From: an uncultured Chloroflexia bacterium
GTDB taxonomy: Bacteria > Chloroflexota > Limnocylindria > Limnocylindrales > CSP1-4
Length of the DNA stretch: 64,000 nucleotides
Reading direction: 5' to 3'
Assembly (NCBI GenBank): GCA_963838285.1
Contig: CAWIQP010000011.1
Coordinates: 75,917-139,916 of the forward strand
Shown: positions 1,616 to 46,586 of the stretch, one piece after another
Layout of the letters: each line of letters begins with the position of its first letter
Position numbering within the stretch: the first letter of the stretch is position 1
Program-made: the position numbers and the translations under genes
Notes under the pieces: model-generated
Databases searched by the model: none
What the model was told of the DNA's origin: nothing
Seen by the model: the letters and a program-made list of their open reading frames with translations, nothing else

Positions 1616-4370
<2,755 letters not shown>

Positions 4371-4378
<8 letters not shown>

Positions 4379-5642: not shown

Positions 5643-5758
5643 GGGGCGATCCTAGCGGGCTCGACGCGGGCCCGTGGCGCTCGCGCCGCACGGCATACGA
5701 TCATGCGGCCCGATGGCAGGTCTTCCGGCACGGGACACGCACCTGGAGGTCGCCCGGC

Positions 5759-6454
5759 ATGAGGTTCGAGCTGGTTCGCGACAGGCTGGCCGTGCTGCCG
5801 CGCGAACTGCCCGCCGCACCGGCCGTCCTGACGCCCGTTCGAATCGACTCGCCGGAGGCGCTCTTCCCGGACGCCGGCCGGCGCGGTCGGCCCGCGGCGG
5901 TCCTCGTGCTGCTCTTCCCCGACGCTGCGGGCCAGGCCCGCGTGCTGCTGACGGCCCGCGCGCCGCAGGGCATCGGGCACGCCGGCGAGGTCAGCTTCCC
6001 GGGCGGCTCCGCCGAGGCGGGCGACGCCGACCCGATCGAGACCGCCATCCGCGAGGCGACCGAAGAGGTCGCGCTGAACCCGACCGCATGCGGCCTGCGT
6101 GTCGTCGGCGCACTGGAGGTGTTCGCCCTGACGGTGTCCGGGTTCCGCATCACGCCGGTCGTGGCCACGGCCGAGCGCCGGCCCGAGTGTCGAGCCGCTC
6201 CCGACGAGGTTGCCCGGATCGTGGAGGCTCCGGTCGAGGCGTTCCTGCCCGATGCCCCGGTCGAGCTGGAGGAGCGGGCCATCCGCCAGCGGCTGATTCG
6301 CTACGGCGTCTACCCGGTCGAAGGCGAGCGGGTCTGGGGCGCGACCGCTCGGATGCTCGGCCAGCTGGGTGCGCTGCTGGCCGAGGAACCCGCGGGCCAT
6401 CCGTCGAAAGCGGCCCACGACGCGTCGCGGCGACGCGCCGTGCCGGAGCGTCGC
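5759..6454 (+). CDS. NUDIX hydrolase (CoA pyrophosphatase-like); reading frame continues without stop into the downstream GNAT-like region
   Basis: ATG 5759 MRFELV...; Nudix box GHAGEVSFPGGSAEAGDADPIETAIREATEEVAL; the 5048..7150 ORF has no stop after the Nudix domain. Confidence 0.7.
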
Positions 6455-14858: not shown

Positions 14859-15286
14859 GCCAGTTCCCGTATTGCCGGGCCGTGGCGTCGACCGGCACGC
14901 TGCACCCGGAGGAGGGACCCAGGGTTCGGAGGCTGGCTTCGTGTCGGCAGATCCGGGCCACGCTGGGACCTCTCCATTCGAATCGCATTCCGTGTGCAAC
15001 CGCCAGTCCTACCCCGCTGGCGGCTCGGCCGGTCAAAGCGGGCGGTACCACGGCCACCGGGCCGCCCGCAGCCGGCTCCCCATTTCCGATCCCAGCCGAC
15101 TCGTGCGCCCGCGGGCGCGAGCCGGCCCATGCCGCCGGCGGCGGCCAGAGAGCGGTACCCCTGGTAGACTCTCCGATGGATCGCGAGGGAGCGGGCATCG
15201 AACCCGGCCCCGCGGCCGCCTGAAGGACAACCTCGCGCCCGACGCCGCAGACGCATCGCCGCGTGCGACGGGCCGGCTGGAGAACG

Positions 15287-15643
15287 ATGACCGGCATCTG
15301 GTACGTAGTCGGCTTGGCGTTCGCGGGGGTTTCTTTCGTCTTCCTCGTGATCGGCCTGGCCTGGCTGATATCGCACCGAAACCGCGGCGATCGCCACAAG
15401 GGACTGCCCTACGAGAGCGGCATCGACACCTACGGCGACACCTGGGGCCGGTCGGCCATCTCGTTCTACGTGTACGCCCTGCTCTTCGTCGCCTTCGACG
15501 TGGAGGTCGTCTTCCTCTACCTGTGGGCGATCGTCTTCCGCGATCTGCTGATCGGCGGCCTGGTGAGCATGGGCACCTTCGTCGTGGTCCTGATGCTCGG
15601 GCTGGCCTACGCGTGGCGGAAGGGAGTCCTGACGTGGCGGTAG
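15287..15643 (+). CDS. nuoA: NADH-quinone oxidoreductase subunit A
   Basis: MTGIWYVVGLAF...DTYGDTWGRSAISFYVYALLFVAFDVEVVFLYLWA; GGAGAACG RBS before ATG 15287 (ORF track starts at GTG 15263). Confidence 0.9.
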   Translation: MTGIWYVVGLAFAGVSFVFLVIGLAWLISHRNRGDRHKGLPYESGIDTYGDTWGRSAISFYVYALLFVAFDVEVVFLYLWAIVFRDLLIGGLVSMGTFVVVLMLGLAYAWRKGVLTWR

Positions 15644-15865: not shown

Positions 15866-16351
15866 GTGATCCCCACCAACGCGGACTACATCCTCGATCT
15901 CATCCGCGCCAACAGCCTGTGGCCGCTCCTGTCGGGCCTGGCCTGCTGCGCGTTCGAGATGATGTCGGGCGCCACGAGCAAGTTCGACATGGACCGCTGG
16001 GGGATGTTCCCGTTCCGCGCCTCTCCCCGCCAGGCCGACGTGCTCATCGTCGCCGGGACGCTGACGACCAAGATGTCGGGCCCTCTCGTGCGGCTCTGGG
16101 AGCAGATGCCCGAGCCCAAGTGGTGCGTCGCGCTGGGAGACTGCACGGTCTCGGGCGGACGCTACAAGCGCAGCTACTCCGTGGTCCAGGGAATCGACCG
16201 GGTCATGCCGGTGGACGTCTACATCCCGGGCTGCCCGCCGCGCCCCGAAGGCCTGATCTACGGCATGCTCCAGCTCGGTCAGCTCGTCAAGGACCGCCGC
16301 GGTCACTGGGACGAGCGCGAGATCGGCCCGACCGCACCGGACGACATCTGA
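15866..16351 (+). CDS. nuoB: NADH-quinone oxidoreductase subunit B (N2 cluster)
   Basis: NSLWPLLSGLACCAFEMM...RASPRQADVLIVAGT...GDCTVSGG...YIPGCPPRPE; GTG start; N-terminus may extend upstream. Confidence 0.9.
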   Translation: MIPTNADYILDLIRANSLWPLLSGLACCAFEMMSGATSKFDMDRWGMFPFRASPRQADVLIVAGTLTTKMSGPLVRLWEQMPEPKWCVALGDCTVSGGRYKRSYSVVQGIDRVMPVDVYIPGCPPRPEGLIYGMLQLGQLVKDRRGHWDEREIGPTAPDDI

Positions 16352-16354
16352 CCG

Positions 16355-16912
16355 ATGGATCGAACCCTCAAGGCCCGGCTCGAAGAACGCCTCGGCGACC
16401 TGCTGCGCGCCCCGGTCTACCAGCGCCACGACGAGACGGAGATCCGCATCGAGCCGGGCAGCGTTCCCGAGGTGCTGCGGCGGCTCCACGACGCCCGCGA
16501 CCTGCGGTTCGAGATCCTGGCCGACCTCGCCGGCGTGGACACGGGCGAGGTCATGCAGGTCGTATACCACCTGTGGAGCCCGATCTCCTCGGACTGGCTG
16601 CGGGTCATCGCCGACGGCATCTCCCGCGAAGACCCTCGCGCGCCCTCGGCGACCTTCCTCTGGATCGGCGCCGAATGGCTGGAGCGCGAGGCCTACGACA
16701 TGTACGGCATCGTCTTCGAGGGCAACCGCGACCTGCGCCGCATCTTCATGCCGCCCGACTACACGAGCTTCCCGCTCCGCAAGGACTTCCTCCTGCCCGA
16801 CGACGCGGCCCGATCGCCTGGCGCCGGCGTTCGCCACATGGAGCGAGCCCACGGCCCGGCCGTCACGGCCGACGATCCGGCCGCCGGCATCCGCCGCGCG
16901 CCGGCGAGTTGA
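16355..16912 (+). CDS. nuoC: NADH-quinone oxidoreductase subunit C (30 kDa)
   Basis: ATG 4 nt after nuoB stop; EREAYDMYGIVFEGNRDLRRIFMPPDY motif. Confidence 0.9.
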   Translation: MDRTLKARLEERLGDLLRAPVYQRHDETEIRIEPGSVPEVLRRLHDARDLRFEILADLAGVDTGEVMQVVYHLWSPISSDWLRVIADGISREDPRAPSATFLWIGAEWLEREAYDMYGIVFEGNRDLRRIFMPPDYTSFPLRKDFLLPDDAARSPGAGVRHMERAHGPAVTADDPAAGIRRAPAS

Positions 16913-17035: not shown

Positions 17036-18217
17036 GTGATGCTGGACCGGCAGATTGGCGCGCTGTTCGAGCCGATTCCGCCCTACCCGACCCGGACCGA
17101 GCGCGAAGGCGAGTTCTACAGCCTGGGCGACGGCGAGATGTTCCTCAACATCGGGCCTCACCACCCGGCCACTCACGGCGTCCTGCGCCTCGTCATGAAG
17201 CTCTCGGGCGAGCAGATCGTGGACGTGGATCCCGTTCTCGGCTACCTCCACCGCGGCGTGGAGAAGATCTGCGAGAACTCCGACTACTACCACGTCATCG
17301 ACCAGGTGGACCCGCTCGAGTACATCAGCTCGCTGTTCCAGGAGTGGGCCGCGGTCCTCTCCTTCGAGAAGCTCATGGACGTGCAGGTCCCGCGCCGGGC
17401 GGAGTACATCCGCGTCCTGTCGGGCGAGCTGCTCCGCATCGCCAGCCACACCCTCTTCATGGGCTTCCTGGCGCTGGACCTGGGCGGCCTTACGCCGATC
17501 CTGTACAGCTTCATCGAGCGTGACGAGATCGTCGAGATGCTGGCGTCCCTGACCGGGGCCCGGATGCTGTTCAACTACTTCCGCATCGGCGGCGTCAACG
17601 GCGACCTCAACCACGAGTTCATGAGCCGCCTGGGCGACTGGATGACCCGCGCCGCGAAGCAGACCGAGGCCCAGGCCGGGCTGCTCAACGAGAACGAGAT
17701 CTTCGTCCGGCGAATGCGGGGCGTGGGCGTCCTGGACCGCGCCACCGCCATCCGCTACGGGGTCACGGGCGGCAACCTCCGCGCCGCCGGCGTTCCGTTC
17801 GACCTGCGGCGAGCCCACCCCTACAGCGTCTACCCGGAGCTGGACTTCAACATCCCGACCCGCGACGAGGGCGACTCGCTGGCGCGCTACCTGATCCGCG
17901 TCGACGAGATCCGCGAGTCGATCAAGATCGTCGACCAGTGCCTGCACAACATGCCCGACGGCCCGGTGATGGCCAGCCTGCCGCGGCTCATCCGGCCGCG
18001 TCCCGGGCGCGCCTGGGGGGCATGCGAAGGGCCGCGCGGGATGCTCGGCGTGTACACGATCAGCGACGGCTCCAACCACCCGTTCCGCTTCCGCATCCAC
18101 GACCCGAGCTTCCTGAACCTCGAGACCGTGCCGGCGCTGCTGCCGGGCAATCTGCTGGCCGACACGATGGCCATCGTCTCATCGCTTGACCCGGTCATGG
18201 GCGGGATCGACAAGTGA
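17036..18217 (+). CDS. nuoD: NADH-quinone oxidoreductase subunit D (49 kDa)
   Basis: MFLNIGPHHPATHGVLRLVMKLSGE...GYLHRGVEK...; 393 aa. Confidence 0.95.
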   Translation: MMLDRQIGALFEPIPPYPTRTEREGEFYSLGDGEMFLNIGPHHPATHGVLRLVMKLSGEQIVDVDPVLGYLHRGVEKICENSDYYHVIDQVDPLEYISSLFQEWAAVLSFEKLMDVQVPRRAEYIRVLSGELLRIASHTLFMGFLALDLGGLTPILYSFIERDEIVEMLASLTGARMLFNYFRIGGVNGDLNHEFMSRLGDWMTRAAKQTEAQAGLLNENEIFVRRMRGVGVLDRATAIRYGVTGGNLRAAGVPFDLRRAHPYSVYPELDFNIPTRDEGDSLARYLIRVDEIRESIKIVDQCLHNMPDGPVMASLPRLIRPRPGRAWGACEGPRGMLGVYTISDGSNHPFRFRIHDPSFLNLETVPALLPGNLLADTMAIVSSLDPVMGGIDK

Positions 18218-19620
18218 GCAACGCCGCCACGCCCGCCCCGGGCCGCATGCGCTCCGCGATCGGCTTCATGCGGAGCTTCCCGGCCGAGTTCTGGGGCCGC
18301 CTGTCGCTCGTCGAGCGCCTGGCCCTGATCTTCGTCCCGGCCGCCATCGTGGCGGCGGTGGTAACCGTTCTGGCCATCGTCCTGCTCGGTCCGCCGTTCC
18401 TGGACTTCCTGGGAGCCAACCTGCCGCTCGTCCGCTTCGCGGTCGCGGCCACGGCGATCCTGCTGCTGACGGTGCCGACGGCCTTCGTCCTGATCTACCT
18501 CGAGCTCAAGGTCATCGCCCGGATGAACCTGCGCATCGGGCCCAACCGGGTGGGGCCGTGGGGCGCGGCGATGAGCCTGATCCACGGCTTCAAGGTCCTC
18601 TCCAAGGAGGACTTCGCCCCGACCGGCGCCGACATCACCGTCTTCACCCTGGCCCCGGTGGTGACCTACATGGCCAGCGTGATGACCCTCCTGGTCATCC
18701 CGTTCGCGCCGGGCCTGATCGGCCAGGATCTCAACATCGGCCTGCTGTACTTCTTCTCGATGGGCGGCCTGACCGTCGTGGGCCTGCTGATGGCGGGCTG
18801 GTCGAGCTTCAACAAGTACTCGCTCCTCGGCGGCCTGCGCTCGGCGGCGCAGATCGTCAGCTACGAGATCCCACTCACCCTCTCGGTCGTGGGCGTCATC
18901 GTCCTCGCCGGAACGATGAGCATGAACCGCATCGTGCTGGCCCAGTCGGGCTCGTTCCTCGACTGGTTCGTATTCAAGCAGCCCCTGGCGGCGCTCATCT
19001 TCTTCATCGCCGCCACGGCGGAGGCCAACCGCACGCCGTTCGACATGACCGAGGCCGACTCCGAGATCGTGGCCGGTTTCGCCACCGAGTACTCGGGGAT
19101 GCGCTTCGGCTTCTTCTTCTTCGCCGAGTACGTGAACGTCTTCATCATCTCGGCGCTCATCACCACGATCTTCTTCGGCGGCTGGACCGCGCCGTTCCAG
19201 TGGCCGTGGGCATACAACCTGAACTGGTTCAATCCCTGGTCGTTCGGCTTCTTCGGCTGGCTCGCCATCGTCCTGACCGTCGGCTACTTCGGGACAGTCT
19301 TCTTCGCCATCTTCGCCCGCCTCTTGGGCGGCCGCGAGTGGGGCCTGTGGTCCTCGATGGGCCTGGGCTTCCTGTTCCTGCTCGTGGTCGTCGCCGGCCT
19401 CGTCGTCCTGGCCGGCTTTGTCGCCTTCGACTGGGTCCAGGGACTGGTCTGGTTCATGGCCAAGACCTACGTCTTCGTCATCACCTTCGTCTGGATGCGG
19501 GCCACGCTGCCGCGCGTCAGGGTCGACCAGCTGATGGGCTTCGCCTGGAAATGGCTGCTGCCGGCCTCGCTTGTCAACCTCTTCGTGACGGCGACCGCCG
19601 TCGTCCTGCTGAACCGGTGA
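18214..19620 (+). CDS. nuoH: NADH-quinone oxidoreductase subunit H
   Basis: GTGA overlap with nuoD stop; ...LKVIARMNLRIGPNRVGPWG...ANRTPFDMTEADSEIVAGFATEYSGMRFGFFFFAEY; follows nuoD directly (no E/F/G between). Confidence 0.95.
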   Translation: MSNAATPAPGRMRSAIGFMRSFPAEFWGRLSLVERLALIFVPAAIVAAVVTVLAIVLLGPPFLDFLGANLPLVRFAVAATAILLLTVPTAFVLIYLELKVIARMNLRIGPNRVGPWGAAMSLIHGFKVLSKEDFAPTGADITVFTLAPVVTYMASVMTLLVIPFAPGLIGQDLNIGLLYFFSMGGLTVVGLLMAGWSSFNKYSLLGGLRSAAQIVSYEIPLTLSVVGVIVLAGTMSMNRIVLAQSGSFLDWFVFKQPLAALIFFIAATAEANRTPFDMTEADSEIVAGFATEYSGMRFGFFFFAEYVNVFIISALITTIFFGGWTAPFQWPWAYNLNWFNPWSFGFFGWLAIVLTVGYFGTVFFAIFARLLGGREWGLWSSMGLGFLFLLVVVAGLVVLAGFVAFDWVQGLVWFMAKTYVFVITFVWMRATLPRVRVDQLMGFAWKWLLPASLVNLFVTATAVVLLNR

Positions 19621-19627
19621 GCGCGCG

Positions 19628-20443
19628 ATGAGCTACGTTCCGGGCCTGGGCATCGCGAAGGGCATGGCGCTGACCATGCGCCGCTTCTTCGCGCCGAAGG
19701 CCACGATCCAGTATCCCGAGACCGCGCCCGACATCGCCGTCCGCTTCCGCGGCCGTCTGCAGCTGCTGTACGACGAACTGGGCAACATCAAGTGCGAAAC
19801 CTGCTTCCAGTGCGCCCAGGCCTGCCCCGTGGAGTGCATCGACATGGGCGGCTTCGACACTCGGGGCCGCTTCCACGTCCACTGGGGCGCGGCCGAGATG
19901 TACGCCGAGCGGCGCGAGGAGTCGGCCCTGAGACGGTCCGGACGGCCCGTGCCCGACCCCGTCTACAGCCACTTCGACTCGATCGACACGGCCGCGGTGG
20001 ACAGCATCCTGGCCAGGTACGACTTCGACGGGGCCGAGATGCTGCCCATCCTCGAGTCGATCCAGGGCGCCTACGGCTACCTGCCCGTGGCCGCCCTCAA
20101 GCGAGTGAGCGAGGTCTCCGGGGCTCCGTACGCGCTCATCTACGGCACCGCCACGTACTACGGCCACCTGCGCTTCGACAAGCCCGGACGCAGCGTGGGC
20201 GTCTGCCGCTGCACGTCCTGCATCCTGGCCGGCTCCAGCCGGATCCACCGCGTGCTCGCCAGGGAGCTTGGGACGGAGATTGGCCGGCGGCCGGCCCCGG
20301 GCGGAGTGGCGCTGGAGCAGATCCCCGCCCACGTCCCCGGCGCGTCCTCGCCGCTCGTCACGCTCGATGGCTCGCCACAGCAGGTGACCGCCGCCGGCGC
20401 CGCGGCCTGGGCCCGCGCCCTGGTCGGGAGGAACGTGGCATGA
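19628..20443 (+). CDS. nuoI/nuoE: chimeric NuoI N-terminal half (single 4Fe-4S motif) fused in frame to a NuoE-like thioredoxin-fold domain
   Basis: aa 1-70 KATIQYPE...RFRGRLQLL...CETCFQCAQACPVECI = NuoI first CxxCxxCxxxCP only (no second motif in any frame 19860-19990); aa ~110-230 ILARYDFDGAEMLPILESIQGAYGYLPVAALKRVSEVSG...VGVCRCTSCILAGS = NuoE, but second Cys pair is replaced (EQIPAHVPGASSP). Confidence 0.7.
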   Translation: MSYVPGLGIAKGMALTMRRFFAPKATIQYPETAPDIAVRFRGRLQLLYDELGNIKCETCFQCAQACPVECIDMGGFDTRGRFHVHWGAAEMYAERREESALRRSGRPVPDPVYSHFDSIDTAAVDSILARYDFDGAEMLPILESIQGAYGYLPVAALKRVSEVSGAPYALIYGTATYYGHLRFDKPGRSVGVCRCTSCILAGSSRIHRVLARELGTEIGRRPAPGGVALEQIPAHVPGASSPLVTLDGSPQQVTAAGAAAWARALVGRNVA

Positions 20444-21777
20444 CGTCCGCCGCCATTCTCGCGACCCCGGCCCGCTTCCCGCGCCTTCTCCTCCCGGCGA
20501 CCCCGGGGCGGGACCCGCTGGATCTCGACGCCGCGGTTGCGGCCGGCGCCTTCACCGCACTGAAGGCCGCGGTGAACGATCTCAAGGCGGAGGGCGTGAT
20601 AGCCGCGCTGGTCGAGTCCGGGATGCGCGGCCGTGGCGGCGGCGGCTTCCCGATCGGCGAGAAGTGGCGAGCCTGCGCCGCTGCCGAATCCGATCGCCGC
20701 TACGTCGTGGTGAACGCCTATCAATCCGACCCGGCGGTGATGACCGACCGCGTTCTGCTGGAGGTCAACCCCTACGCGGTCGTCGAGGGCGCCGCGATCG
20801 CGGCTTTCGCCGTCGGCGCGAGCGAGGTGATCGTCGCGGTCCGGGCCGAAGCCACGGACGCGATCCGGGCCATGGAGTCGGCCGTGGCGGAGGCCGAGTC
20901 GGCCGGCTTCATCGGGGCTGACGTCCTCGGCACCGGGACGGAGATCCGCTTCTCGGTCAGGCCGCTGCAGGGCTCCTACATGCTCGGCGAGGAGACGGTC
21001 CTGCTGAAGGGCCTGGAGGGCAAGCGCGGCCAGCCGGAGCAGCAGCCGCCGTACGTCACCACTCGCGGCCTCTTCGGAGCGCCGACCCTGATCCACGGAC
21101 CGCAGACCTTCGCCGCCGTCCCGACCATCCTGTCCGGCGGCATCGCCGGCTTCCCGGAGACCGGGGCGCGGGCTTTCGCGGGCACCGTCCTGGTCCAGAT
21201 CTCCGGTACGGTCGCCCAGCCCGGAGTCGCCGAGGTTCCGTTCGGCGTCACACTTCGGGAGGTCCTCGACGTCGCTGGCGGCGTTCCCGCCCCGCATCGG
21301 CTCAAGGCCGTGCTGGTAGGCGGCCCGTCGGGTGGCATCCTGCCGCCGGAGGGTCTGAGCGTCGGCTTCGACCACGACTCCCTGGCGAAGGCGGGCGCGT
21401 ACGTCGGTTCCGGGTCGATCGTCGTCGTGGATCAGCACGGCTGCGTCGTGGACCTGGCCGCGGTCCTGACCCGCTTCTGCGCCGATCAGGCCTGCGGAAA
21501 GACGATCCCCTGCCGGATCGGCCTGCGGCGGCTGGCCGAGATCGGCGCCCGGATCTGCGAAGGACAGCCGCGCGGCGACGAGATAACCCGCCTGACCGAC
21601 CTCTCCGCCGACATAGTCGGCAGCGCCCTGTGCGACCACGAGCGTCGCGCCACGCTCGCCATGCTGAGCGTCGTCCGGTACTTCCGCGACGAGCTCGACG
21701 CCCACATCGTCCGTAACACCTGTCCCGCCGGGATCTGCCAGCCCAAGGCAGATGCCCGTGCCGGGACCGTTTCCTGA
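20440..21777 (+). CDS. nuoF: NADH-quinone oxidoreductase subunit F (51 kDa, FMN/NADH, N3)
   Basis: ATGA overlap with upstream stop; ESGMRGRGGGGFPIGEKW, GEETVLLKGLEGKRG, CGKTIPCRIG...C cluster motifs. Confidence 0.95.
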   Translation: MTSAAILATPARFPRLLLPATPGRDPLDLDAAVAAGAFTALKAAVNDLKAEGVIAALVESGMRGRGGGGFPIGEKWRACAAAESDRRYVVVNAYQSDPAVMTDRVLLEVNPYAVVEGAAIAAFAVGASEVIVAVRAEATDAIRAMESAVAEAESAGFIGADVLGTGTEIRFSVRPLQGSYMLGEETVLLKGLEGKRGQPEQQPPYVTTRGLFGAPTLIHGPQTFAAVPTILSGGIAGFPETGARAFAGTVLVQISGTVAQPGVAEVPFGVTLREVLDVAGGVPAPHRLKAVLVGGPSGGILPPEGLSVGFDHDSLAKAGAYVGSGSIVVVDQHGCVVDLAAVLTRFCADQACGKTIPCRIGLRRLAEIGARICEGQPRGDEITRLTDLSADIVGSALCDHERRATLAMLSVVRYFRDELDAHIVRNTCPAGICQPKADARAGTVS

Positions 21778-21785
21778 GGCGTCCC

Positions 21786-24596
21786 ATGCGAGAACCGACC
21801 CCCCGCCCCAGCCCCAGCGCATCGCCCTCGACCGCGAAGTCCCGGAAACCCGGCAAGGCGGCGAAATCGGCCCCGCTGGACTCGGCTCCGGTGGAGGCAA
21901 CCACGATCGCCCCAATCAATGCCGTCGCCCCGGCGTCGGCGGCCCTTGAGGCCTACGAGGAGCGTCCCGTCGAGTCGTTGCGCGGGCTGCGGCCGCAGGC
22001 CAACCAGAAGGCCGTTTGGAACAAGCGCGCCGGCCGGCCGGACAGCCGGCCGGACTCCAGGACGCCCTACGACACCGTGGTGCCGTTCGACGACTCGCTG
22101 GCGGAGCGACTGATCACGACCCAGGCTCCCCAGCGCCCGCTCTCGACGCCCACCTTCCGCCTCTCGGTCGACGGCCGCGTGGTCGAGGGCACCGAGGGCC
22201 AGACGATCCTGGAGGTCTGCCGCGCCAACGGCATCGAGATCCCGACGCTCTGCTACGAGCCAAAGCTGCCGGGCTTCGGGGCCTGCCGTATGTGCGTCGT
22301 CGAGGTCGACGGCGAGGAGCACCCGCCCATCTCCTGCTCCCGCGCCGCAGAGGCCGGGATGGTCGTTCGAACCCAGACCGAGCAGCTCCGCCGCCTGCGC
22401 CGCACGAATCTCGAGCTGATCTTCAGCGACCACAACGCCTACTGCCTGCCGCCCTGCCAGAACAAGTGCCCCAGCCACATCGACATCCCGGGCTTCCTCA
22501 AGGCCAACGCCGAGGGGCAGTTCCGGGAGTCGGCCCGCATCTTCAAGCGGACCATCCCCTTCCCGTCGATCCTGGGTCGCGTCTGCCCCGCCCCGTGCGA
22601 GGACCACTGCCGCCGCGACGAGGTGGACGAGGCCATCGCCATCCGGGACAGCCACCGCTACGCCGGCGACACGGTTCTCGCGGCGCAGAAGAACGGCATC
22701 GAGCCGCCGCTGCCGTTCGAGACGTCGCCGAAGACGGGCAGGCGGGTGGCGATCGTCGGGTCCGGGCCGGCCGGAATGGCCGCGGCTTACTACCTGCTCC
22801 TGTCCGGCCACGACGTCACCGTCTTCGAACGCGACCCGGAGCCCGGCGGAATGCTCCGCTACGGCATCCCCGAGTACCGCCTCCCGAAGGCCGACGTCCT
22901 CGAGCCCGAGTACGAGGCCGTCTGGCGCCTCGGCGCGCGGCTGGAGTGCAACAAGGCGCTCGGTCGGGACTTCAGCCTGGACGACCTGCGGGACCAGGGC
23001 TTCGACTCGACCATCGTCGCCACCGGCTGCTACGACACGAACAAGCTCAACATCCCCAACGAGAACGCCGACGGAGTCATCGACGGCCTGGAGTACCTGC
23101 GGATCGCCACGCTCGGGCTCCCGTACCCGGGCCACAAGGGCAGCCGGGTGGTGGTCGTGGGCGGCGGCTTCACGGCCATGGACTGCTGGCGGACCTCGAT
23201 CCGGCAGGGCGCAAAGCAGGTTACGCTCGTCTACCGCCGCGACATGAAGGACATGCCGGCCTCGAGCGAGGTCCACGAGGCCCTCGAGGAGGGCGGCACC
23301 GCCGTCTTCCAGGCCGGCCCCACCCGGGTCCTCGTCGACGCGAACAACAAGGTCACCGGCGTCGAGTTCATCCGCATGCGGCCCGGCGCGCCCGACGCGA
23401 GCGGCCGGCGCCGCCCCGAGCCCGCCCCCGGAACCGAGTTCGTGGTCGAGTGCGACCGCGTCCTGCTGGCCATCGGCCAGGGGCCGGACCTGTCGTGGAT
23501 CGGACCCGGCAACGAGGGCGTGGCCGCGGTCAAGTACAAGCTCGCCGCCGACGCGGTCACGTTCGAGACCGGCAGGCCGGGCGTCTTCGGCGCCGGGGAC
23601 GTCCGGATCGGGGCCGCGACCGTCGTCCAGGCCATCGCCGAGGGCCGCCGCTGCGCCTATGCCGTCGACGCCTACCTCAAGGGCAACGACCTGACCGAGC
23701 TGCGGACGCGCCAGACGCTGGCCGAAGTGGAGCCGACCTTCCTCTCGATCGTGCCCTACACCGACGAGCCCAAGGAGGCTCGCCACCGTCTCAAGGCGAT
23801 GCCGGCGAAGGAGCGGTCCAGGAGCTACGTCGAGTACGAGATCCCGTACACGCCGGCGGAGGTCATGGCCGAGTCCACCCGCTGCCTGCAGTGCACCTGC
23901 GAGGCGCTGGGCAACTGCGACCTGCGCCGCCTCGGCATCGAGTACGGGACGACTCTACCGACGCTCGAGCCGGGCCACGATCAGGGCGCCGGCTTCCGGA
24001 GCGTCACCGAGAACCGCTTCACCGGCGCCAACCACGACTACATCCGCGACGACAGCCACGCCTTCATCCTGCGCGAGCCATCTCGCTGCATCGACTGCGG
24101 GCGCTGCGCCGCCGTCTGCGCGGACGTCGTGGGTGCGGCCTGCTACGACTTCATGCGGACCGGCTTCGACACGCTCGTGACGACGCCGCTGGACATGAGC
24201 CTCAACGACACGCCGTGCGTCTCCTGCGGCCGCTGCGCCGAGACGTGCCCCACGGGCGCGCTGATGCCCAAGCCGCGCGTCCTCGAGAAGTACGACGTCG
24301 ACGAAAGCCGCTGCATCCTGTGCGGCATCTGCGTCGACGCCTGCCCCTACGACGCCCTGCGCGGCGGTCAGGACAACGAGCTCGCCCACACCAGCCGGGC
24401 CAACCCGGAGGTCGATCTGATCGGGCTGGCCGCCGTCGAGCGCGAGACCGAGGTGACCTACGTCCGGCGCGAGCGCGACTGGCTGGCCCACGCCCTCGCC
24501 GAAGGACGCGTCGAGGACCCGGCGAGGATGCTGCCGGCCCTGCCGCAGTCCCTCGCCCCCGCCCGGAGCAATCGCAGGGGGGCAGATCGCCAATGA
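21786..24596 (+). CDS. chimeric Fe-S flavoprotein: NuoG-N-terminal-like 2Fe-2S/His-Cys3 domain + GltD-like FAD/NAD(P)H oxidoreductase + C-terminal 2x[4Fe-4S] ferredoxin, in the position of nuoG
   Basis: Pro/Ala-rich N-terminus; FRLSVDGRVVEGTEGQTILEVCRANGIEIPTLCYEPKLPGFGACRMCVVEV (NuoG/Nqo3 N1b-like); HNAYCLPPCQNKCPSHIDIPGFL...RVCPAPCEDHC (GltD-type); RVAIVGSGPAGMAAAYYL...GGMLRYGIPEYRLPK; CIDCGRCAAVC...CVSCGRCAETCP...CILCGICVDACP; no Mo-bisPGD-like NuoG C-terminal domain. Confidence 0.8.
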   Translation: MREPTPRPSPSASPSTAKSRKPGKAAKSAPLDSAPVEATTIAPINAVAPASAALEAYEERPVESLRGLRPQANQKAVWNKRAGRPDSRPDSRTPYDTVVPFDDSLAERLITTQAPQRPLSTPTFRLSVDGRVVEGTEGQTILEVCRANGIEIPTLCYEPKLPGFGACRMCVVEVDGEEHPPISCSRAAEAGMVVRTQTEQLRRLRRTNLELIFSDHNAYCLPPCQNKCPSHIDIPGFLKANAEGQFRESARIFKRTIPFPSILGRVCPAPCEDHCRRDEVDEAIAIRDSHRYAGDTVLAAQKNGIEPPLPFETSPKTGRRVAIVGSGPAGMAAAYYLLLSGHDVTVFERDPEPGGMLRYGIPEYRLPKADVLEPEYEAVWRLGARLECNKALGRDFSLDDLRDQGFDSTIVATGCYDTNKLNIPNENADGVIDGLEYLRIATLGLPYPGHKGSRVVVVGGGFTAMDCWRTSIRQGAKQVTLVYRRDMKDMPASSEVHEALEEGGTAVFQAGPTRVLVDANNKVTGVEFIRMRPGAPDASGRRRPEPAPGTEFVVECDRVLLAIGQGPDLSWIGPGNEGVAAVKYKLAADAVTFETGRPGVFGAGDVRIGAATVVQAIAEGRRCAYAVDAYLKGNDLTELRTRQTLAEVEPTFLSIVPYTDEPKEARHRLKAMPAKERSRSYVEYEIPYTPAEVMAESTRCLQCTCEALGNCDLRRLGIEYGTTLPTLEPGHDQGAGFRSVTENRFTGANHDYIRDDSHAFILREPSRCIDCGRCAAVCADVVGAACYDFMRTGFDTLVTTPLDMSLNDTPCVSCGRCAETCPTGALMPKPRVLEKYDVDESRCILCGICVDACPYDALRGGQDNELAHTSRANPEVDLIGLAAVERETEVTYVRRERDWLAHALAEGRVEDPARMLPALPQSLAPARSNRRGADRQ

Positions 24597-24645: not shown

Positions 24646-25194
24646 ATGCCGATAGGCGACTCGATCCCGCTGCTCGGGATCCGCTGGGACGACATCCTGT
24701 TCGTCGTTCTGTCCGCCACGCTTCTCGTGTCGGCCCTGATGGTGGTCACGCTGCGCGACATCATCCGCTGCGGCCTGGCCCTGATCGTCTCGTTCGCGTC
24801 CCTGGCGGGCATCTACGCCCTGCTCGGCGACCCGCTCATCGCCGCCACGCAGGTGCTCGTCTACATCGGCGCCATCAGCATCCTGATCCTGTTCGCGATC
24901 ATGATGACCCAGACGAAGGACGCGCCGGCGAGGCTGGTCTTCCAGACTCAGGCCTGGCTCGCCGCCGGCGCCGCGGCGGTCATCGCGGTGGTGATCGCCG
25001 CGACGGTTCTGGCCACGACGTGGCCCGCCGGCGGGCAGCGCCTCTGGACCGCCACCGCGGACGTCGCACATCTGCTCTTCCACGACTACGTTCTGCCGTT
25101 CGAGGTGGTCAGCGTCCTGCTGACGGCGGCGGTCGTCGGGGCGGTCTACCTGGCCCGCCGCGAGCCCAGCCGGCACGAGGAGGATCGGTCGTGA
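24646..25194 (+). CDS. nuoJ: NADH-quinone oxidoreductase subunit J
   Basis: GGAGGGAGG RBS; 5 TM ...ATQVLVYIGAISILILFAIMMTQ. Confidence 0.9.
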   Translation: MPIGDSIPLLGIRWDDILFVVLSATLLVSALMVVTLRDIIRCGLALIVSFASLAGIYALLGDPLIAATQVLVYIGAISILILFAIMMTQTKDAPARLVFQTQAWLAAGAAAVIAVVIAATVLATTWPAGGQRLWTATADVAHLLFHDYVLPFEVVSVLLTAAVVGAVYLARREPSRHEEDRS

Positions 25195-25502
25195 GCAACT
25201 CGCTCGACTCGTACCTGGTGCTGTCCGGCCTCCTCTTCGCCATCGGCACGTTCGGCTTCCTGGCCCGGCGCAACGCGATCAGCATGCTCATGTCGATCGA
25301 GCTGATGATCAACGCCGTCAATCTGACCATCCTGGCCTTCGGGGCGTTCGTGCCGCCGCTGAACGGGCACGCGGCGGTCATCGCCCTGATCGTGATCGCG
25401 GTCGCGGCGGCCGAGGCGACGGTGGGCCTGGCGATCGTCGTGGCCATCTACCGGAACCGCAAGACGCCGCTGGTCGACGAGTACGACTCGATGAAGGACT
25501 AG
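25191..25502 (+). CDS. nuoK: NADH-quinone oxidoreductase subunit K
   Basis: GTGA overlap with nuoJ stop; LFAIGTFGFLARRNAISMLMSIELMINAVNL. Confidence 0.9.
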   Translation: MSNSLDSYLVLSGLLFAIGTFGFLARRNAISMLMSIELMINAVNLTILAFGAFVPPLNGHAAVIALIVIAVAAAEATVGLAIVVAIYRNRKTPLVDEYDSMKD

Positions 25503-25506
25503 GGCG

Positions 25507-27463
25507 ATGAATCTTCCTCATCCCGCTGATCCCGCTGCTGCCCCTGGCCGGCTTCGCCGTCACCGGCCTGTTCGGCCGCGCGATGGGCCGGGAGTCGCAC
25601 CGGATCGCCATCTGGGCGGTCGTGGCCTCGTGGATCGTGGCGATGGTCGTCGCCTTCGGCGCCCTGGCCCACGTCGGCATCGCCGCGGCAGGCATCGACG
25701 TCAAGCTCTGGGACTGGATCCCGGCCACCGGCTTCCACGCCGACTTCGGCTTCTTCGTCGATCCGCTGACGGCCTGCCTGCTGATCGTGGTCACGACCAT
25801 CGGCATGCTCGTCCACATCTACTCGATCGGCTACATGGCCCACGACGCCGGCAAGTGGCGCTTCTTCGCCTACCTGAACCTGTTCATGTTCTCGATGCTC
25901 GTGCTGGTCCTGGCCGACAACTTCCTGCTCGTCTTCGCCGGCTGGGAGCTGGTGGGCCTGTGCAGCTACCTGCTGATCGGGTTCTGGTACCCGCGCCGGT
26001 CCGCGGCCGAGGCCGCCAAGAAGGCTTTCCTGGTCAACCGCGTCGGCGACATGGGCTTCGCCCTCGGGATCATGGCCATCTGGACCCAGCTCGGCACTCT
26101 CAACATGCAGCAGGTCTTCGCCGCGTTCGGAAGCGTCCCGCACGAGTGGCAGATCGCCATCGCCGCGCTTCTGCTCTGCGGCGCGGTCGGCAAGAGCGCC
26201 CAGTTCCCGCTCCACGTCTGGCTGCCGGACGCGATGGAGGGCCCCACGCCGGTCTCCGCCCTGATCCATGCCGCGACCATGGTCAACGCCGGCGTGTACC
26301 TCGTGGCCCGCTGCAACCCGATCTTCGGCGCCGCGCCCGAGGTGATGGTCGTCGTGGCCGCGATCGGCATCTTCACCGCCATCCTGGCCGCTTCGATCGC
26401 GTTCACCCAGACCGACATCAAGCGCGTCCTGGCCTACTCGACGCTCTCCCAGCTGGGCTACATGTTCGCCTCGCTGGGCGTCGGGGCGTGGACGGCGGCG
26501 ATCTTCCACCTGATGAGCCACGGCTTCTTCAAAGGCCTGCTCTTCCTCGACTCCGGCTCGGTCATCCACGCCGTCGACGGCGAGCAGGACATGCGCAAGA
26601 TGGGCGGCCTGGCGAAGAAGATTCCCGTCACCTACGCGACGATGCTCATCGGCTCGGTGGCCATCTCCGGCGTCCCGCCGCTGGCCGGGTTCTTCTCCAA
26701 GGACGAGATCCTGGGCGGCGCCTTCAAGAACGGCTTCCTGTGGGTCTGGGCGATCGGCTTCGCCGTCGCCGGCATGACCGCCTTCTACATGTTCCGGCTC
26801 ATGGGCCTGACCTTCTGGGGCGAGAGCCGCGTCGACCCGGAGAAGGAATCTCACATCCACGAGTCGCCGCCGTCGATGACCCGGCCGCTCATCCTGCTGG
26901 CCATCCCGGCGGTCTTCCTGGGCATGCTGATCGGCTTTCCGCCTGAATCGGGGCTGCTCCACCAGTGGCTCCAGCCGGTCTTCGAGGCCACCGTCGCGGC
27001 GAGCGGCCGGACAGAGGCCGCCTACAACTTCTTCGGCATCGACGGCGCGCTGGCAATCGGGACGACGGGCCTCGTGGCAATCGCCATAGTCGTGGCCTGG
27101 CGACTCTTCGGCGTGGACATGCCGGCCCTGGGTCTGCGGGCTCAGCCGCGCCCCGAGCGCGTTCGTGAGATCAGCGCCAGGCCGGGACTCGCCTTCCTGT
27201 ACCGCGGCTCCTCGAACAAGTGGTGGTTCGACGACCTGTACAACCTGCTCTTCGTGGTCTGGGGCGGCAGGCTCGCGGCCGCGGTCTTCTGGTTCGACCG
27301 CACGATAGTCGACGGCACCGTCAACGGCGTCGGCGCCGTGACCACCGGCGCGGGCGTCAGGCTCCGCCGCGTCCAGACGGGCCACGTCCAGAACTACGCC
27401 CTCGGCATCGCTCTCGGCCTGATCGTCATGGCCGTCGGCTACATCCTGATCGCGGTTCGGTAG
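25507..27463 (+). CDS. nuoL: NADH-quinone oxidoreductase subunit L, with apparent 1-bp insertion near 25516
   Basis: ATG 25507 MNL then frame shifts to FLIPLIPLLPLAGFAVTGLFGRAMGRE (ORF 25583..27463); removing one C from CTTCCTC restores MNLLIPLIPLL; antiporter-like body with long C-terminal horizontal helix. Confidence 0.9.
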
Positions 27464-27475
27464 GAGGAAGAGACG

Positions 27476-28999
27476 ATGAGCCTGCCGATCCTGAGCCTGA
27501 TCACGTTCACGCCGCTCGTCGGGGCGCTCGTGGTCGCCGTCCTGCCGTCGCGCCGCCCCGACCTCATCCGGCGCACCACCCTGGGCTTCACGCTGCTGGC
27601 ATGGGTCATGTCGCTGCTGCTGCTCGCGGCCTACGCCTTCGGCCAGACCGGCTTCCAGTTCAAGGAGGCGGCCGACTGGATCCCGTCCTTCGGCATCCAG
27701 TACAAGGTGGGCGTCGACGGCCTGAGCGTCCTGATGGTCGTGCTGACGACGACCCTGACGTGGATCAGCGTGCTGGCCAGCTTCGGCCCGATCAAGGACC
27801 GAGTGAAGGGCTACATGATCTCCTTCCTCGTCCTCGAGGTCGGCATGATCGGCGTCTTCGTCGCCCTGGACCTCTTCCTGTTCTACATCTTCTGGGAGAT
27901 CGTCCTGGTCCCGATGTACCTGATCATCGGCATCTGGGGCGGCGCCAACCGCGTCTACGCGACGATGAAGTTCGTGCTGTACACGCTCGTCGGGTCGCTG
28001 CTGATGCTGGTCGCGATCCTCGCCACGGCCTACGCCTACCAGGTGGCGCACGCCGGTTCCTGGGTCGGAGCCTTCGACTACGTGCAGCTCCAGCAGTTCG
28101 CGGCCTCCGGCGGCTTCGGTGACAACTTCCAGATCCTTGCCTTCCTGGCGCTCTTCCTGGCCTTCGCCATCAAGGTGCCGATGTTCCCGTTCCACACCTG
28201 GCTGCCCGACGCCCACACCGAGGCGCCCACGGCCGGCTCGGTGATCCTCGCCGGCGTCCTGCTCAAGCTCGGCGCCTACGGCCTGATCCGGTTCGCGGTG
28301 CCGCTCTACCCCTACGGGGCTCACACGTTCGCCTGGCCGATCATCGTCCTGAGCGTCATCGCCATCGTCTACGGCGCGATCGTGTCGATCGTCCAGCCCG
28401 ATCTCAAGCGCCTGATCGCCTACAGCTCGGTCAGCCACATGGGCTTCGTGACGCTCGGAATCTTCGTGTTCAGCGCCACCGCCCTCCAGGGCGCGATCCT
28501 GCAGATGATCAACCACGGCCTGATCACGGGCGGCCTCTTCCTCCTCGTCGGCGTCGTCTACGAGCGGACCCACGACCGAACCATCGCCAAGATGGGCGGT
28601 CTGGCGGCGGCGATGCCGATCTGGGCGACGGTCTTCGGCTTCTTCATCCTGGCCTCCGCCGGCCTGCCCGGCCTCTCCGGCTTCGTCGGCGAGTTCCTGG
28701 TCTTCGTCGGGTCGTTCGGGATCGCGCCGGTTATCGCGGTGGCCTCGATCATCGTCATGGTCCTGGCCGCCACCTACCTGCTGTGGATGTTCCAGCGCGT
28801 CGCCTTCGGCGTGCTGTCCGACTTCCTGCGAGGCCTCGGCGGTCACCTGACCGACATGACCGGGACCGAGCTGGCGACGCTCCTTCCGCTCGCCGCGCTG
28901 ATCGTCGTGCTCGGGCTGTTCCCGAGCCTCGTGCTCGATCTCCTCCGCGCTCCCGCCCAGGCGTTCCTGGCGGCGGCCGGAGTCGCGGTCGGCGGCTGA
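27476..28999 (+). CDS. nuoM: NADH-quinone oxidoreductase subunit M
   Basis: 507 aa antiporter-like subunit; ...FPFHTWLPDAHTEAPTAGSVILAGVLLKLGAYGLIRF. Confidence 0.95.
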   Translation: MSLPILSLITFTPLVGALVVAVLPSRRPDLIRRTTLGFTLLAWVMSLLLLAAYAFGQTGFQFKEAADWIPSFGIQYKVGVDGLSVLMVVLTTTLTWISVLASFGPIKDRVKGYMISFLVLEVGMIGVFVALDLFLFYIFWEIVLVPMYLIIGIWGGANRVYATMKFVLYTLVGSLLMLVAILATAYAYQVAHAGSWVGAFDYVQLQQFAASGGFGDNFQILAFLALFLAFAIKVPMFPFHTWLPDAHTEAPTAGSVILAGVLLKLGAYGLIRFAVPLYPYGAHTFAWPIIVLSVIAIVYGAIVSIVQPDLKRLIAYSSVSHMGFVTLGIFVFSATALQGAILQMINHGLITGGLFLLVGVVYERTHDRTIAKMGGLAAAMPIWATVFGFFILASAGLPGLSGFVGEFLVFVGSFGIAPVIAVASIIVMVLAATYLLWMFQRVAFGVLSDFLRGLGGHLTDMTGTELATLLPLAALIVVLGLFPSLVLDLLRAPAQAFLAAAGVAVGG

Positions 29000-29010
29000 G
29001 AGGAGATGGC

Positions 29011-30471
29011 ATGAGCTGGTCCGACGTCGGAACGATCTCGCCGGTCGTCATCGCCGTCCTGGTCGCGGCGGCGATCCTGGTCGTCGACATGGCCGTGCCC
29101 GGCCGGCGTACCCCGATTCTCGTCACCGCCCTGGGCGGCCTGGGCATCGTGGCCGTGGCGATCCTGATCCAGGCGGGCCACGGCGGCAGCGCCTTCGACG
29201 GCGCCTACTCCCTCGACAACCTGACCGTCTTCCTCGACATGCTGTTCGTGGCCATCGCGGCCCTGACCATCATGTTCGCGGTCGACTACCTGGAGCCGCG
29301 CGGCCTGCCCCTCGCCGAGTTCGCGGCGGTCCTGGTCTTCGCCATCACCGGCGCGATGCTCGTCGCCGGCTCGACGGACCTGCTGCTTCTCTTCGTCGCC
29401 CTGGAGCTGATGGTCCTGCCCGGCTATATGCTGGCCGGCTTCGCTCGGCGCGACCCGTACTCGACCGAGGGCGCGATCAAGTACTTCCTGCTCGGCTCGT
29501 TCTCGAGCGCGATCCTGCTCTTCGGCCTGGCCTACGACTGGGGGATGACCGGCACCACGAGCGTTGCCGGCGTGTCCGCGGCCCTCGCCACGGCCATCGC
29601 CCACGGCTCGATCCAGCCTGGCCTGGCCCTGGGTCTGGCCTTCATGACCGCCGGCGTCGCGTTCAAGATGGCGGCCGTGCCGTTCCACTACTGGACTCCG
29701 GACGCGTACCAGGGCTCGCCGACACCCGTCACGGCGTACCTGTCCGTGGGCCCCAAGATCGGCGCCTTCGCCATCGCCCTGCGCCTCTTCGTCGGCGCGC
29801 TCGGCCCGCTCAAGGCCGACTGGCTGCCCGTCGTCATCGTCCTGGCCGCTCTCACGATGACCCTCGGCAATCTGGTGGCGATCAGCCAGGACAACGTCAA
29901 GCGAATGCTGGCCTACTCCTCCATCGCCCACACCGGCTACATCCTGGTCGGCCTGGCGGCCTACGCCGGCGGCCAGCAGAGCGGCCTATCGGCGATCCTG
30001 TTCTACGGGGCCGCCTACACGTTCATGAACATGGGCGCCTTCGCGATCATCGCCGCTCTGCAGCGGCGGCCGGGAGTGAGCAGCCAGATCGCAACGTTCG
30101 CCGGGCTGGGCCGGCGCGATCCCTGGCTCGGCGCGCTGATGGCGCTCTTCCTGCTGTCGCTGACCGGCATCCCGCCGCTCGCCGGCTTCTGGGCCAAGGC
30201 CTACGTGATCCTGGCCGCTATCCAGGCCGGCGGATGGCTCACCGCCCTGGCGGTCCTGGCGATGATCAACGCGGCGGCGGCGGCCTTCTACTACCTGCGG
30301 GTCGTGGTCTACATGTACATGCGCGAGCCCGCCGAGGAGACCGCGCCGAGTTCCCCCGGACGGCTGTTCCGGACCGGCCTGGCGGTCACGGGCGTGGCGA
30401 CGCTCGTCTTCGGGCTCTTCCCGGCCCTCGTGACGGCAGCCAGCAACGCCGCGAACGTCTTCCGCGGCTAG
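29011..30471 (+). CDS. nuoN: NADH-quinone oxidoreductase subunit N
   Basis: GAGAGGAG RBS; ...AAVPFHYWTPDAYQGSPTPVTAYLSVGPKIGAFAI. Confidence 0.9.
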   Translation: MSWSDVGTISPVVIAVLVAAAILVVDMAVPGRRTPILVTALGGLGIVAVAILIQAGHGGSAFDGAYSLDNLTVFLDMLFVAIAALTIMFAVDYLEPRGLPLAEFAAVLVFAITGAMLVAGSTDLLLLFVALELMVLPGYMLAGFARRDPYSTEGAIKYFLLGSFSSAILLFGLAYDWGMTGTTSVAGVSAALATAIAHGSIQPGLALGLAFMTAGVAFKMAAVPFHYWTPDAYQGSPTPVTAYLSVGPKIGAFAIALRLFVGALGPLKADWLPVVIVLAALTMTLGNLVAISQDNVKRMLAYSSIAHTGYILVGLAAYAGGQQSGLSAILFYGAAYTFMNMGAFAIIAALQRRPGVSSQIATFAGLGRRDPWLGALMALFLLSLTGIPPLAGFWAKAYVILAAIQAGGWLTALAVLAMINAAAAAFYYLRVVVYMYMREPAEETAPSSPGRLFRTGLAVTGVATLVFGLFPALVTAASNAANVFRG

Positions 30472-46460: not shown

Positions 46461-46586
46461 CTCTCGCGAGCTCGGGCCTGACAAGCGATTCGGCCTCCTG
46501 GGCGAGCGCTGAGGTGGAGCGGAGTATAACCCAGGCCACGCCTGGACACGGCGGCCCGGCCGAGGCGGCAGAGCCGGCGGCCGATC

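Follow-up and report, generated by a model that had tools for sequence, protein, structure and literature searches.

The 64,000-nucleotide stretch analyzed here (the window), part of contig CAWIQP010000011.1 from an uncultured Chloroflexia bacterium, contains a complex I operon of 13 genes whose nuoI is interrupted, in the loop between its two cluster motifs, by three genes that form an NAD(P)H-oxidizing cassette. Because the cassette sits within nuoI, the 5′ half of the gene is translated as the N-terminus of a NuoE-like protein and the 3′ half as the C-terminus of an NfnA-like protein. We consider it probable, at about 80%, that an Nfn/Bfu-type E-F-G cassette was inserted into the nuoI gene of an 11-subunit-type operon and that the domain for clusters N6a and N6b is rebuilt from two polypeptides. 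Few respiratory enzymes have been studied as thoroughly as complex I, of which NuoI (TYKY) is treated as an indivisible core subunit. An original prediction for this DNA, concerned with the open reading frame (ORF) at 19628-20443, had described a NuoI N-terminus with a single motif that runs in frame into a NuoE-like domain, a description that matches to TIGR01971 and PF01257 bear out.

NuoI is encoded in two halves

The segments that make up the divided gene and the cassette are as follows (aa, amino acids; nt, nucleotides).

19628-20443, plus strand: fusion ORF, 271 aa, ATG start
19628-19861, plus strand: NuoI N-terminal half, aa 1-78 of the fusion ORF (TIGR01971 positions 1-62 of 121; PDB NuoI/TYKY chains)
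19862-19984, plus strand: linker, aa 79-119 (...RFHVHWG..YAERREESALRRSGRPVPD...), bridging the NuoI half and the NuoE-like domain
19985-20443, plus strand: NuoE/BfuC-like thioredoxin-like domain, aa 120-271 (Pfam PF01257)
20440-21777, plus strand: NuoF/BfuB-like flavoprotein core, 445 aa (Pfam Complex1_51K, SLBB, NADH_4Fe-4S)
21786-24596, plus strand: whole gene of a 936-aa protein, the second gene downstream of the fusion ORF
21786-24263, plus strand: NfnA/StnC-like (BfuA-like) body of the 936-aa protein (Pfam, NCBIfam PRK12814, PDB, Cys map)
24267-24596, plus strand: NuoI C-terminal half at the end of the 936-aa protein, aa 828-885 (nt 24267-24440), plus tail (TIGR01971, NF004537)

Examination of the fusion ORF shows that aa 9-77 match NuoI models (TIGR01971, E 7.8e-14) as well as PDB NuoI/TYKY chains (E ~1e-9), and that aa 12-74 correspond to TIGR01971 positions 1-62, taking in the NuoI-specific N-terminal region (YPE..RFRG) ahead of the first motif. 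When the N-terminal piece (aa 1-111) was scanned alone, each of the ten top NCBIfam matches was a NuoI model. The sole CxxCxxCxxxCP motif of the ORF is CETCFQCAQACP (aa 56-67, nt 19793-19828). The original prediction had also stated that no second motif exists in any of the three forward frames of 19860-19990, and a frame check agrees: there is no Cys cluster in that interval, two frames being free of Cys and the third having two isolated Cys and a stop. With one motif and a score of 51-54 bits, against a TIGR01971 cut-off of 113 bits, the ORF is not a two-motif, single-chain NuoI.

The obligatory second motif is not lost, as had been supposed, but is encoded at 24312-24347, within the C-terminus of the 936-aa protein two genes downstream, where it occupies aa 843-854. 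The tail of this protein aligns with TIGR01971 positions 71-113 of 121 and NF004537 positions 100-149 of 204, which is the stretch absent from the fusion ORF. Scanned alone, the tail gave eight top NCBIfam matches that were all NuoI (best E 1.3e-10), with generic ferredoxin families appearing from 6e-6, and PDB NuoI chains were matched over the second-motif region. For either NuoI piece, generic ferredoxins came at least four orders of magnitude behind the NuoI models. The flanks of the motif are likewise NuoI-specific, reading YDVDxxRC...CPxDAL..G.DxELA, and distant relatives have RCGPDFELAH after this motif, which is nearer to the canonical VEGPNFEFAT.

On TIGR01971 the tail scores 40.5 bits and the N-terminal piece 53.7 bits, and neither reaches the family cut-off. 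An artificial, hand-made join of aa 1-78 of the fusion ORF to the tail of the 936-aa protein scores 97.5 bits over positions 1-113 of 121, still below the 113-bit cut-off, and matches PDB NuoI/TYKY chains at E 1.5e-19 and 73.5 bits, where each half on its own gives ~1e-9 and ~41 bits. That the alignment is unbroken follows from the construction; what is informative is that the coverage of the two pieces is complementary and that their scores are additive.

Across the 64 kb, CxxCxxCxxxC occurs four times, once in the fusion ORF and three times in the 936-aa protein (beginning at aa 768, 811 and 843). The first two of these three, motif A (aa 768-778) and motif B (aa 811-822), form an ordinary two-cluster ferredoxin-like domain of the NuoG/HydA/StnC type, and therefore one orphan motif is left in each protein. 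The StnC structure aligned here has no further CxxCxxCxxxCP after its second motif; ...TVCTFCGMGC stands there instead, which we read as the cluster motif at the start of the molybdopterin-like domain. A loose HMMER alignment would make the third motif a remnant of the StnC CxxCxxxC; this was ruled out, since the NuoI-specific scores are far stronger.

Both NuoI motifs fall in the interval between the end of nuoH (19620) and the start of nuoJ (24646). The two NuoI pieces are ~4.4 kb apart, with three other proteins or domains encoded in between, and neither motif counts nor ORFs revealed a separate nuoI between the 936-aa protein and nuoJ or elsewhere in the 64-kb window.

In the 2x[4Fe-4S] ferredoxin fold, each cluster is held by three Cys of one motif and a fourth Cys of the other. 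The halves must therefore pack together into one NuoI domain if N6a and N6b are to form, and because a lone motif is unable to complete a cluster in that fold, the presence of two orphan NuoI-type halves is best explained by reconstitution. Most likely, then, the N6a/N6b pair is kept and is assembled from two chains.

Conservation in Chloroflexota

The original prediction proposed a database search for NuoI-NuoE fusions, and such fusions turned out to be abundant. By protein search, relatives at 71-89% identity fall into at least 120 clusters, nearly all of them 270-272 aa long, and a scan that took one genome per species found 580 stretches of species-representative genomes that encode relatives of the fusion ORF. 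The best 80 of these 580 stretches all belong to Chloroflexota metagenome-assembled genomes (MAGs), mostly labelled Candidatus Limnocylindrales or Limnocylindria and including a closed 3.68-Mb chromosome. The split NuoI is a conserved design, shared by hundreds of Chloroflexota genomes from soil and fresh water.

Of 80 homologous genes, 79 carry exactly one motif, and the lone exception has masked bases. All eight Cys of the fusion ORF and His235 are invariant (80/80 sequences). The large protein retains three C-terminal motifs in 56 of 61 relatives, the other five being interrupted by masked N. One gene order, nuoA-B-C-D-H-[I(N)-E]-F-[G'-I(C)]-J-...-L, recurs in the loci long enough to judge, down to 56% identity (Ca. 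Limnocylindrus); the two loci L004 and L006 have an orphan copy of the fusion gene instead. Many of the large-protein homologues are recorded as products of 300-520 aa, even on contigs of 100 kb to 1 Mb, which points to frameshifts in MAGs built from long reads, or to gene calling that truncates the protein.

The ratio of nonsynonymous to synonymous substitution rates (dN/dS) was determined against six relatives with a reliable gap-free comparison; values for two further loci (L014 and L015) were not used, because the gap-free comparison was misaligned, with identity below the tblastn value. The ratio is lowest in the NuoI part (0.02-0.11), with 0.06-0.29 in the linker and 0.23-0.42 in the NuoE part, indicating that all three parts of the ORF are under purifying selection. 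The linker contains many invariant residues (16 sequences), and its mean identity is 73% over 79 relatives. Among the subunits, the G' protein (the counterpart of the 936-aa protein) and NuoB are the most conserved across relatives and F the least, a pattern that is compatible with, and no proof of, the GltD-like site as the main point of electron entry.

The module between the NuoI halves

The large protein matches PRK12814, a 2Fe-2S plus GltD-like model, at E 9e-163. Its N-terminal 2Fe-2S domain (Fer2_4) spans aa 124-198 and is followed by a GltD/NfnL-like region at aa 220-634, made up of Fer4_20 and a flavin adenine dinucleotide (FAD)/NAD(P)H domain (Pyr_redox_2) with Pfam matches over aa 220-620, a CxxCxC..C cluster motif at aa 700-711, and then motifs A and B. 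Past the FAD domain, the closest PDB matches include StnC 9bov_A (E 2.4e-20), 8oh5_C and NfnA 9n5u_A. No Pfam match to an Fdh/NuoG-like (molybdopterin-fold) domain was found in the 936-aa protein, which stops 83 residues past the third motif and has the NuoI-like tail in place of that domain. A Pro/Ala/Ser-rich extension of ~100-120 aa (window 21786-22150) precedes the N-terminal domain; it is kept in close relatives only, distant ones aligning from about aa 87-107, and the true start may lie further downstream.

The TGA stop of the fusion ORF overlaps the ATG of the NuoF-like gene (ATGA at 20440-20443). Against PDB, the F protein is closest to HydB, StnB and NfnB (E 1e-102 to 1e-95), with the best complex I NuoF at 1.8e-84. 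Neither the N-terminal 2Fe-2S_thioredx domain nor the C-terminal 2x[4Fe-4S] ferredoxin domain of bifurcating BfuB gave a Pfam match in this protein. The N3/B1 motif reads ACGKTIPC, its second Cys being replaced by Thr in 69 of 70 relatives, and the canonical NADE near the flavin site is NAYQ in the window and N[AG]Y[QE] clade-wide, with GEET kept; the two unusual motifs fall within F aa ~90-100 and 346-358. Compensation for the lost N3 Cys by an upstream Cys in F ("FC") was ruled out, as that position is C, G, A or S across the clade.

The NuoE-like domain matches PF01257 (2Fe-2S_thioredx) over aa 120-250 with E 2.8e-18; the 66.6 bits scored over aa 125-248 compare with a gathering cut-off of 24.8. 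AlphaFold2 models it with a predicted local distance difference test (pLDDT) score of 76-92, and its best PDB matches are NfnC 9n5u_C and StnA 8oh5_A. The four-Cys [2Fe-2S] (N1a/C1) site, C-x4-C ... C-x3-C, is incomplete: canonical Cys 1 and 2 are present (C193 and C198), and the third and fourth positions are A234 and G238, reading EQIPAHVPGASSP, so that the second ligand pair is missing as had been predicted. Across 80 sequences these two positions are T/A/S/V/G and G/D/E. The domain has not merely lost ligands, however. The CRCTSC at aa 193-198 (nt 20204-20221) holds an extra C195, H235 (nt 20330-20332) adjoins the lost third-ligand position, and C193, C195, C198 and H235 are invariant in 80/80 sequences. 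From these residues, a remodelled metal site with three Cys and one His appears possible. CxCxxC occurs in other lineages too, with or without the second Cys pair (CQCPAC in L084; CDCASC in P0135). Decay of F and of the NuoE domain is partly supported, as both are the least conserved parts; yet dN/dS stays under 1 and their odd residues persist throughout the clade.

Schut et al. (2022, PMC9304861) list Nfn-Bfu as a separate soluble type and use the BfuBC core, with clusters B1-B5 and C1, as the criterion for the family. The window proteins lack this full set of flavin mononucleotide (FMN) and six Fe-S clusters (B1-B5 and C1), and by the published BfuBC criterion the Limnocylindria module should presumably not bifurcate.

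The split is kept in three further lineages

A search of 1.8 billion cluster representatives recovered full-length fusions at 30-50% identity. One motif in the first protein and three in the large protein is a rule that holds in four divergent lineages, namely the window clade, L081, L083 and L084. L081 (66% guanine-cytosine (GC) content) carries P0321, which belongs to the P0212 family; one of the clusters in that family has the label Thermoleophilia. The L081 gene order is H-IE (253 aa, one motif)-F (636 aa)-G' (824 aa, three motifs, the last with ..FEL)-J-K-L-M-N. The 636-aa protein is a complete BfuB that includes the 2Fe-2S domain at its N-terminus and the 2x4Fe-4S domain at its C-terminus, and all four Cys are found in the NuoE domain, so that the BfuBC set is all present by sequence. 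In L083 (50% GC, 2076-6023) it is the NuoF/BfuB-like protein (1048 aa) that bears the GltD-like FAD domain as a fusion, and the NuoG-like protein, of 265 aa, consists of a 2Fe-2S domain, a cluster motif with a His ligand, two motifs and, at the end, the third, NuoI-like one; here the module has been rearranged and the NuoI split retained. L084 (59% GC) has IE (271 aa)-F (468 aa)-G' (at least 749 aa, three motifs). The linker is partly deleted in the second lineage. Homologous fusions that retained both motifs would have implied local sequence loss in the window, but no fusion with two motifs in its first protein was seen among the homologues examined.

Proposed path of electrons

The composite NuoI would sit on NuoH and NuoB as usual and would tether the input module covalently on both sides. 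Electrons could enter at the GltD-like FAD site, from NADPH or NADH, at the FMN of the NuoF-like subunit, or at both, and would then pass through the Fe-S clusters of the NfnA-like protein to the composite NuoI, to N2 in NuoB and to quinone. The module of the window clade appears to be reduced and presumably does not bifurcate, given a truncated BfuB, one replaced N3 ligand and a NuoE site possibly remodelled to three Cys and one His. In complex I, NuoI neighbours NuoG and receives electrons by N5 to N6a transfer; with the NuoG-like ferredoxin end fused to the second half of NuoI, adjacent redox centres are therefore joined in one chain. Canonical 14-subunit operons have nuoEFG between nuoD and nuoH. 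Here the cassette lies between nuoH and nuoJ instead, and its position in nuoI looks like a separate acquisition of a pyridine-nucleotide module.

Alternative readings

The alternative that survives best has the N-terminal half working alone, with one [4Fe-4S] cluster on Cys56, Cys59, Cys62 and Cys70 and with the third motif providing an extra cluster of the 936-aa protein. Cys70 (CPVEC, nt 19835-19837) is a fifth Cys, four residues past the first NuoI motif and outside the canonical motif; it is invariant in 80/80 Limnocylindria-clade sequences, and single-cluster ferredoxins with a remote fourth ligand exist. However, the CxxCxxCxxxCP that ends the 936-aa protein would then itself be left without a partner, the flanks of this motif are those of NuoI and not of a generic ferredoxin, and Cys70 is replaced in other split-NuoI lineages (CPVQVI, CPVEAI) that still keep the 1 + 3 rule. 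We regard a one-cluster NuoI as unlikely.

It is more doubtful again that a canonical nuoI resides elsewhere in the genome, with the half-NuoI pieces serving as docking tags or relics that anchor an accessory Nfn-like module. Genes of this kind do occur outside the nuo locus: orphan copies of the fusion gene, 78-79% identical to that of the window and with no nuo genes nearby, are found in L006 (8001-8867) and L004 (5784-6596), the former beside a 2-oxoglutarate dehydrogenase E1-like gene and an ATP-binding cassette ATPase in a MAG that also has the full operon (L024). Nevertheless, in the loci examined there is no other NuoI-capable gene between nuoH and nuoJ. In addition, the two halves keep all eight of their cluster Cys without exception, and dN/dS is lower in the N-terminal half than elsewhere in the ORF, which would be unexpected for relic tags.

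That the E-F-G' proteins form a separate soluble Nfn-type transhydrogenase, travelling in the nuo operon, is in our view very improbable. All three are nearest to the soluble NfnABC, StnABC and HydABC, but in four lineages both flanking proteins are fused to halves of a subunit that docks on the membrane arm, the 936-aa protein is without the Fdh/NuoG-like domain of NfnA/StnC, and the BfuB/BfuC cofactor set for bifurcation is incomplete in the window clade. Finally, a damaged gene or assembly artefact, in which a deletion or collapse removed the second NuoI motif along with the nuoI stop and nuoE start, has only the local look of the ORF (one motif, then an in-frame NuoE-like domain) in its favor and can practically be dismissed, as the same 270-272-aa architecture recurs across the at least 120 clusters and 580 stretches, from many independent assemblies, with invariant key residues and dN/dS of 0.02-0.42, the other NuoI half is present, conserved and in frame 3.8 kb downstream, and in canonical operons nuoE does not come after nuoI, so that a simple deletion could not make the junction. 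Therefore, of the two options originally offered, a rebuilt wire or a damaged gene, damage falls away, and rebuilding applies to the input module upstream of NuoI and not to NuoI itself.

Several observations count against a reconstituted NuoI fed by this module. The orphan fusion-gene copies in L004 and L006 are left unexplained by a split NuoI, and the search for a separate nuoI covered individual loci. The activity of F is uncertain because of its active-site substitutions (N3 Cys to Thr; NADE to NAYQ). Donor specificity, cofactors and the direction of electron flow are assigned by homology only, and, like physical reconstitution of the domain and occupancy of its cofactor sites, they are deduced from sequence. 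Structure prediction also lends no help: in a single-chain AlphaFold2 model of the ORF, from a shallow 30-sequence alignment, the NuoI half has a pLDDT of 33-53, and the C-terminal 303 aa of the 936-aa protein, likewise from a shallow alignment, average 33.6. We had considered low pLDDT in the NuoI half as a sign of a half-domain, and dropped this because the C-terminal 303 aa are equally poor; as these include the complete two-motif domain of the 936-aa protein, the alignments are evidently too shallow.

The operon and other genes in the window

The remaining genes of the operon, identified by Pfam, are listed below.

15263-15643, plus strand: nuoA (Oxidored_q4)
15866-16351, plus strand: nuoB (Oxidored_q6)
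16355-16912, plus strand: nuoC (Complex1_30kDa)
17036-18217, plus strand: nuoD (Complex1_49kDa)
18214-19620, plus strand: nuoH, 468 aa (NADHdh, E 1e-102, aa 81-460 against model positions 5-298)
24646-25194, plus strand: nuoJ (Oxidored_q3)
~25197-25502, plus strand: nuoK (Oxidored_q2)
25583-27463, plus strand: nuoL (Proton_antipo_N/M)
27476-28999, plus strand: nuoM (Proton_antipo_N/M)
28783-30471, plus strand: nuoN ORF, true start probably near 28996 (Proton_antipo_N/M)

These ten core genes, A-B-C-D-H...J-K-L-M-N, lie in one cluster, as in an 11-subunit-type operon. NuoH extends ~86 residues beyond the span of the Pfam model, with a hydrophobic insertion near aa 330-420; in L081, L083 and L084 the protein is 375, 321 and 363 aa long, respectively. 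Elsewhere, the window has an unrelated large membrane glycosyltransferase-like cluster (40184-50915), which includes a minus-strand 1753-aa protein with the domains PMT and PMT_4TMC and, at 46587-50118, TMEM260-like/PMT_2 proteins.

Annotation and significance

In automated annotation the first protein appears as NuoE ("NADH:ubiquinone oxidoreductase subunit E") and the last as "formate dehydrogenase major subunit"; "formate hydrogenlyase subunit 6/NuoI" is also given to pieces of the set. A metabolic reconstruction of these genomes would consequently score nuoI as missing and complex I as incomplete. We found no published split NuoI or NuoI-NuoE fusion in the full-text literature, although most subscription journals lie outside its coverage, so that absence is unproven; as far as we could find, the arrangement is widespread and undescribed, its nearest published counterparts being the predicted Nuo-Bfu and the structurally solved NfnABC/StnABC. 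A conserved and widespread split would mean that two chains, each fused to a different Nfn/Bfu-type subunit, can make up the N6a/N6b ferredoxin domain. It would also be a natural example of an input module grafted onto an 11-subunit core, and so bears on the open question of how the N-module was acquired. The prediction that follows is that, in abundant soil and freshwater Limnocylindria and in at least three other lineages, a proton pump is supplied directly by NADPH or bifurcation-type chemistry.

Comparison with known systems

Taken together, the fusion ORF and the tail of the 936-aa protein resemble NuoI/Nqo9/TYKY (NDUFS8, N6a and N6b) in spanning model positions 1-113 of 121, in lying between nuoH and nuoJ and in having a GP.FE-like stretch after the second motif. 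They differ from it in being two pieces on two polypeptides, and in the extra Cys70. The second part of the fusion ORF shares with NuoE/Nqo2/24-kDa and HydC/NfnC/StnA the thioredoxin-like fold, the first Cys pair and a NuoF-like gene that follows with overlapping stop and start, whereas Cys195 and His235 in place of Cys 3 and 4, the NuoI half at the N-terminus and a dN/dS above that of the rest of the ORF set it apart.

NfnABC and StnABC are structurally solved electron-bifurcating NADH/ferredoxin:NADP+ transhydrogenases of the Bfu family (PDB 9n5u, 8oh5, 9bov; PMC11829005, PMC10482914, PMC7483475), whose A subunit consists of an N-terminal domain, an NfnL(GltD)-like FAD domain and an Fdh/NuoG-like domain (PMC11829005, PMC10482914). 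They are likewise three-protein sets and provide the best or near-best PDB matches for all three window proteins, and the 936-aa protein has the N-terminal 2Fe-2S, inserted GltD/NfnL-like FAD-NADP(H) and two-cluster ferredoxin-like domains of NfnA/StnC. Unlike these enzymes, the window set has an A without the Fdh/NuoG-like domain, a B without the N-terminal domain and C-terminal ferredoxin and a C without the four-Cys site, and it is wired into a membrane complex through the NuoI halves. Being fused to those halves, the module is unlikely to bifurcate to ferredoxin.

A predicted 14-subunit, A-to-N "Nuo-Bfu" has been described in Geobacter, Deferribacteres, Planctomycetes and Nitrospirae by Schut et al. 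(2022, PMC9304861), who make no mention of NuoI, a split or a fusion. Nuo-Bfu also combines a complex I core with a Bfu-type module that replaces the canonical NuoEFG in the middle of the cluster. In the window, however, an Nfn-type module, with the NADPH domain, interrupts nuoI, the phyla concerned are others, and the Limnocylindria version is without the BfuB ferredoxin domain that defines the family. Degli Esposti (2015) reported gltD-related flavoproteins in place of NuoI in mbx-like operons, which is a different situation from that of the window.

In 11-subunit complex I-like enzymes (nuoABCDHIJKLMN), such as cyanobacterial NDH-1, NuoI is the entry point for electrons (PMC3144371, PMC11238625). 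The window operon has the same core gene order, and those enzymes differ from it in having an intact NuoI and no built-in NAD(P)H module. Tentatively, then, the split NuoI might represent a second, independent way for a ferredoxin-type 11-subunit complex I to gain such a module, the two halves stapling the module to the core. Limnocylindria could in that case possess a proton-pumping NADPH (or NADH/NADPH):quinone oxidoreductase, and the relatives with a complete BfuBC could couple bifurcation or confurcation to the proton pump.

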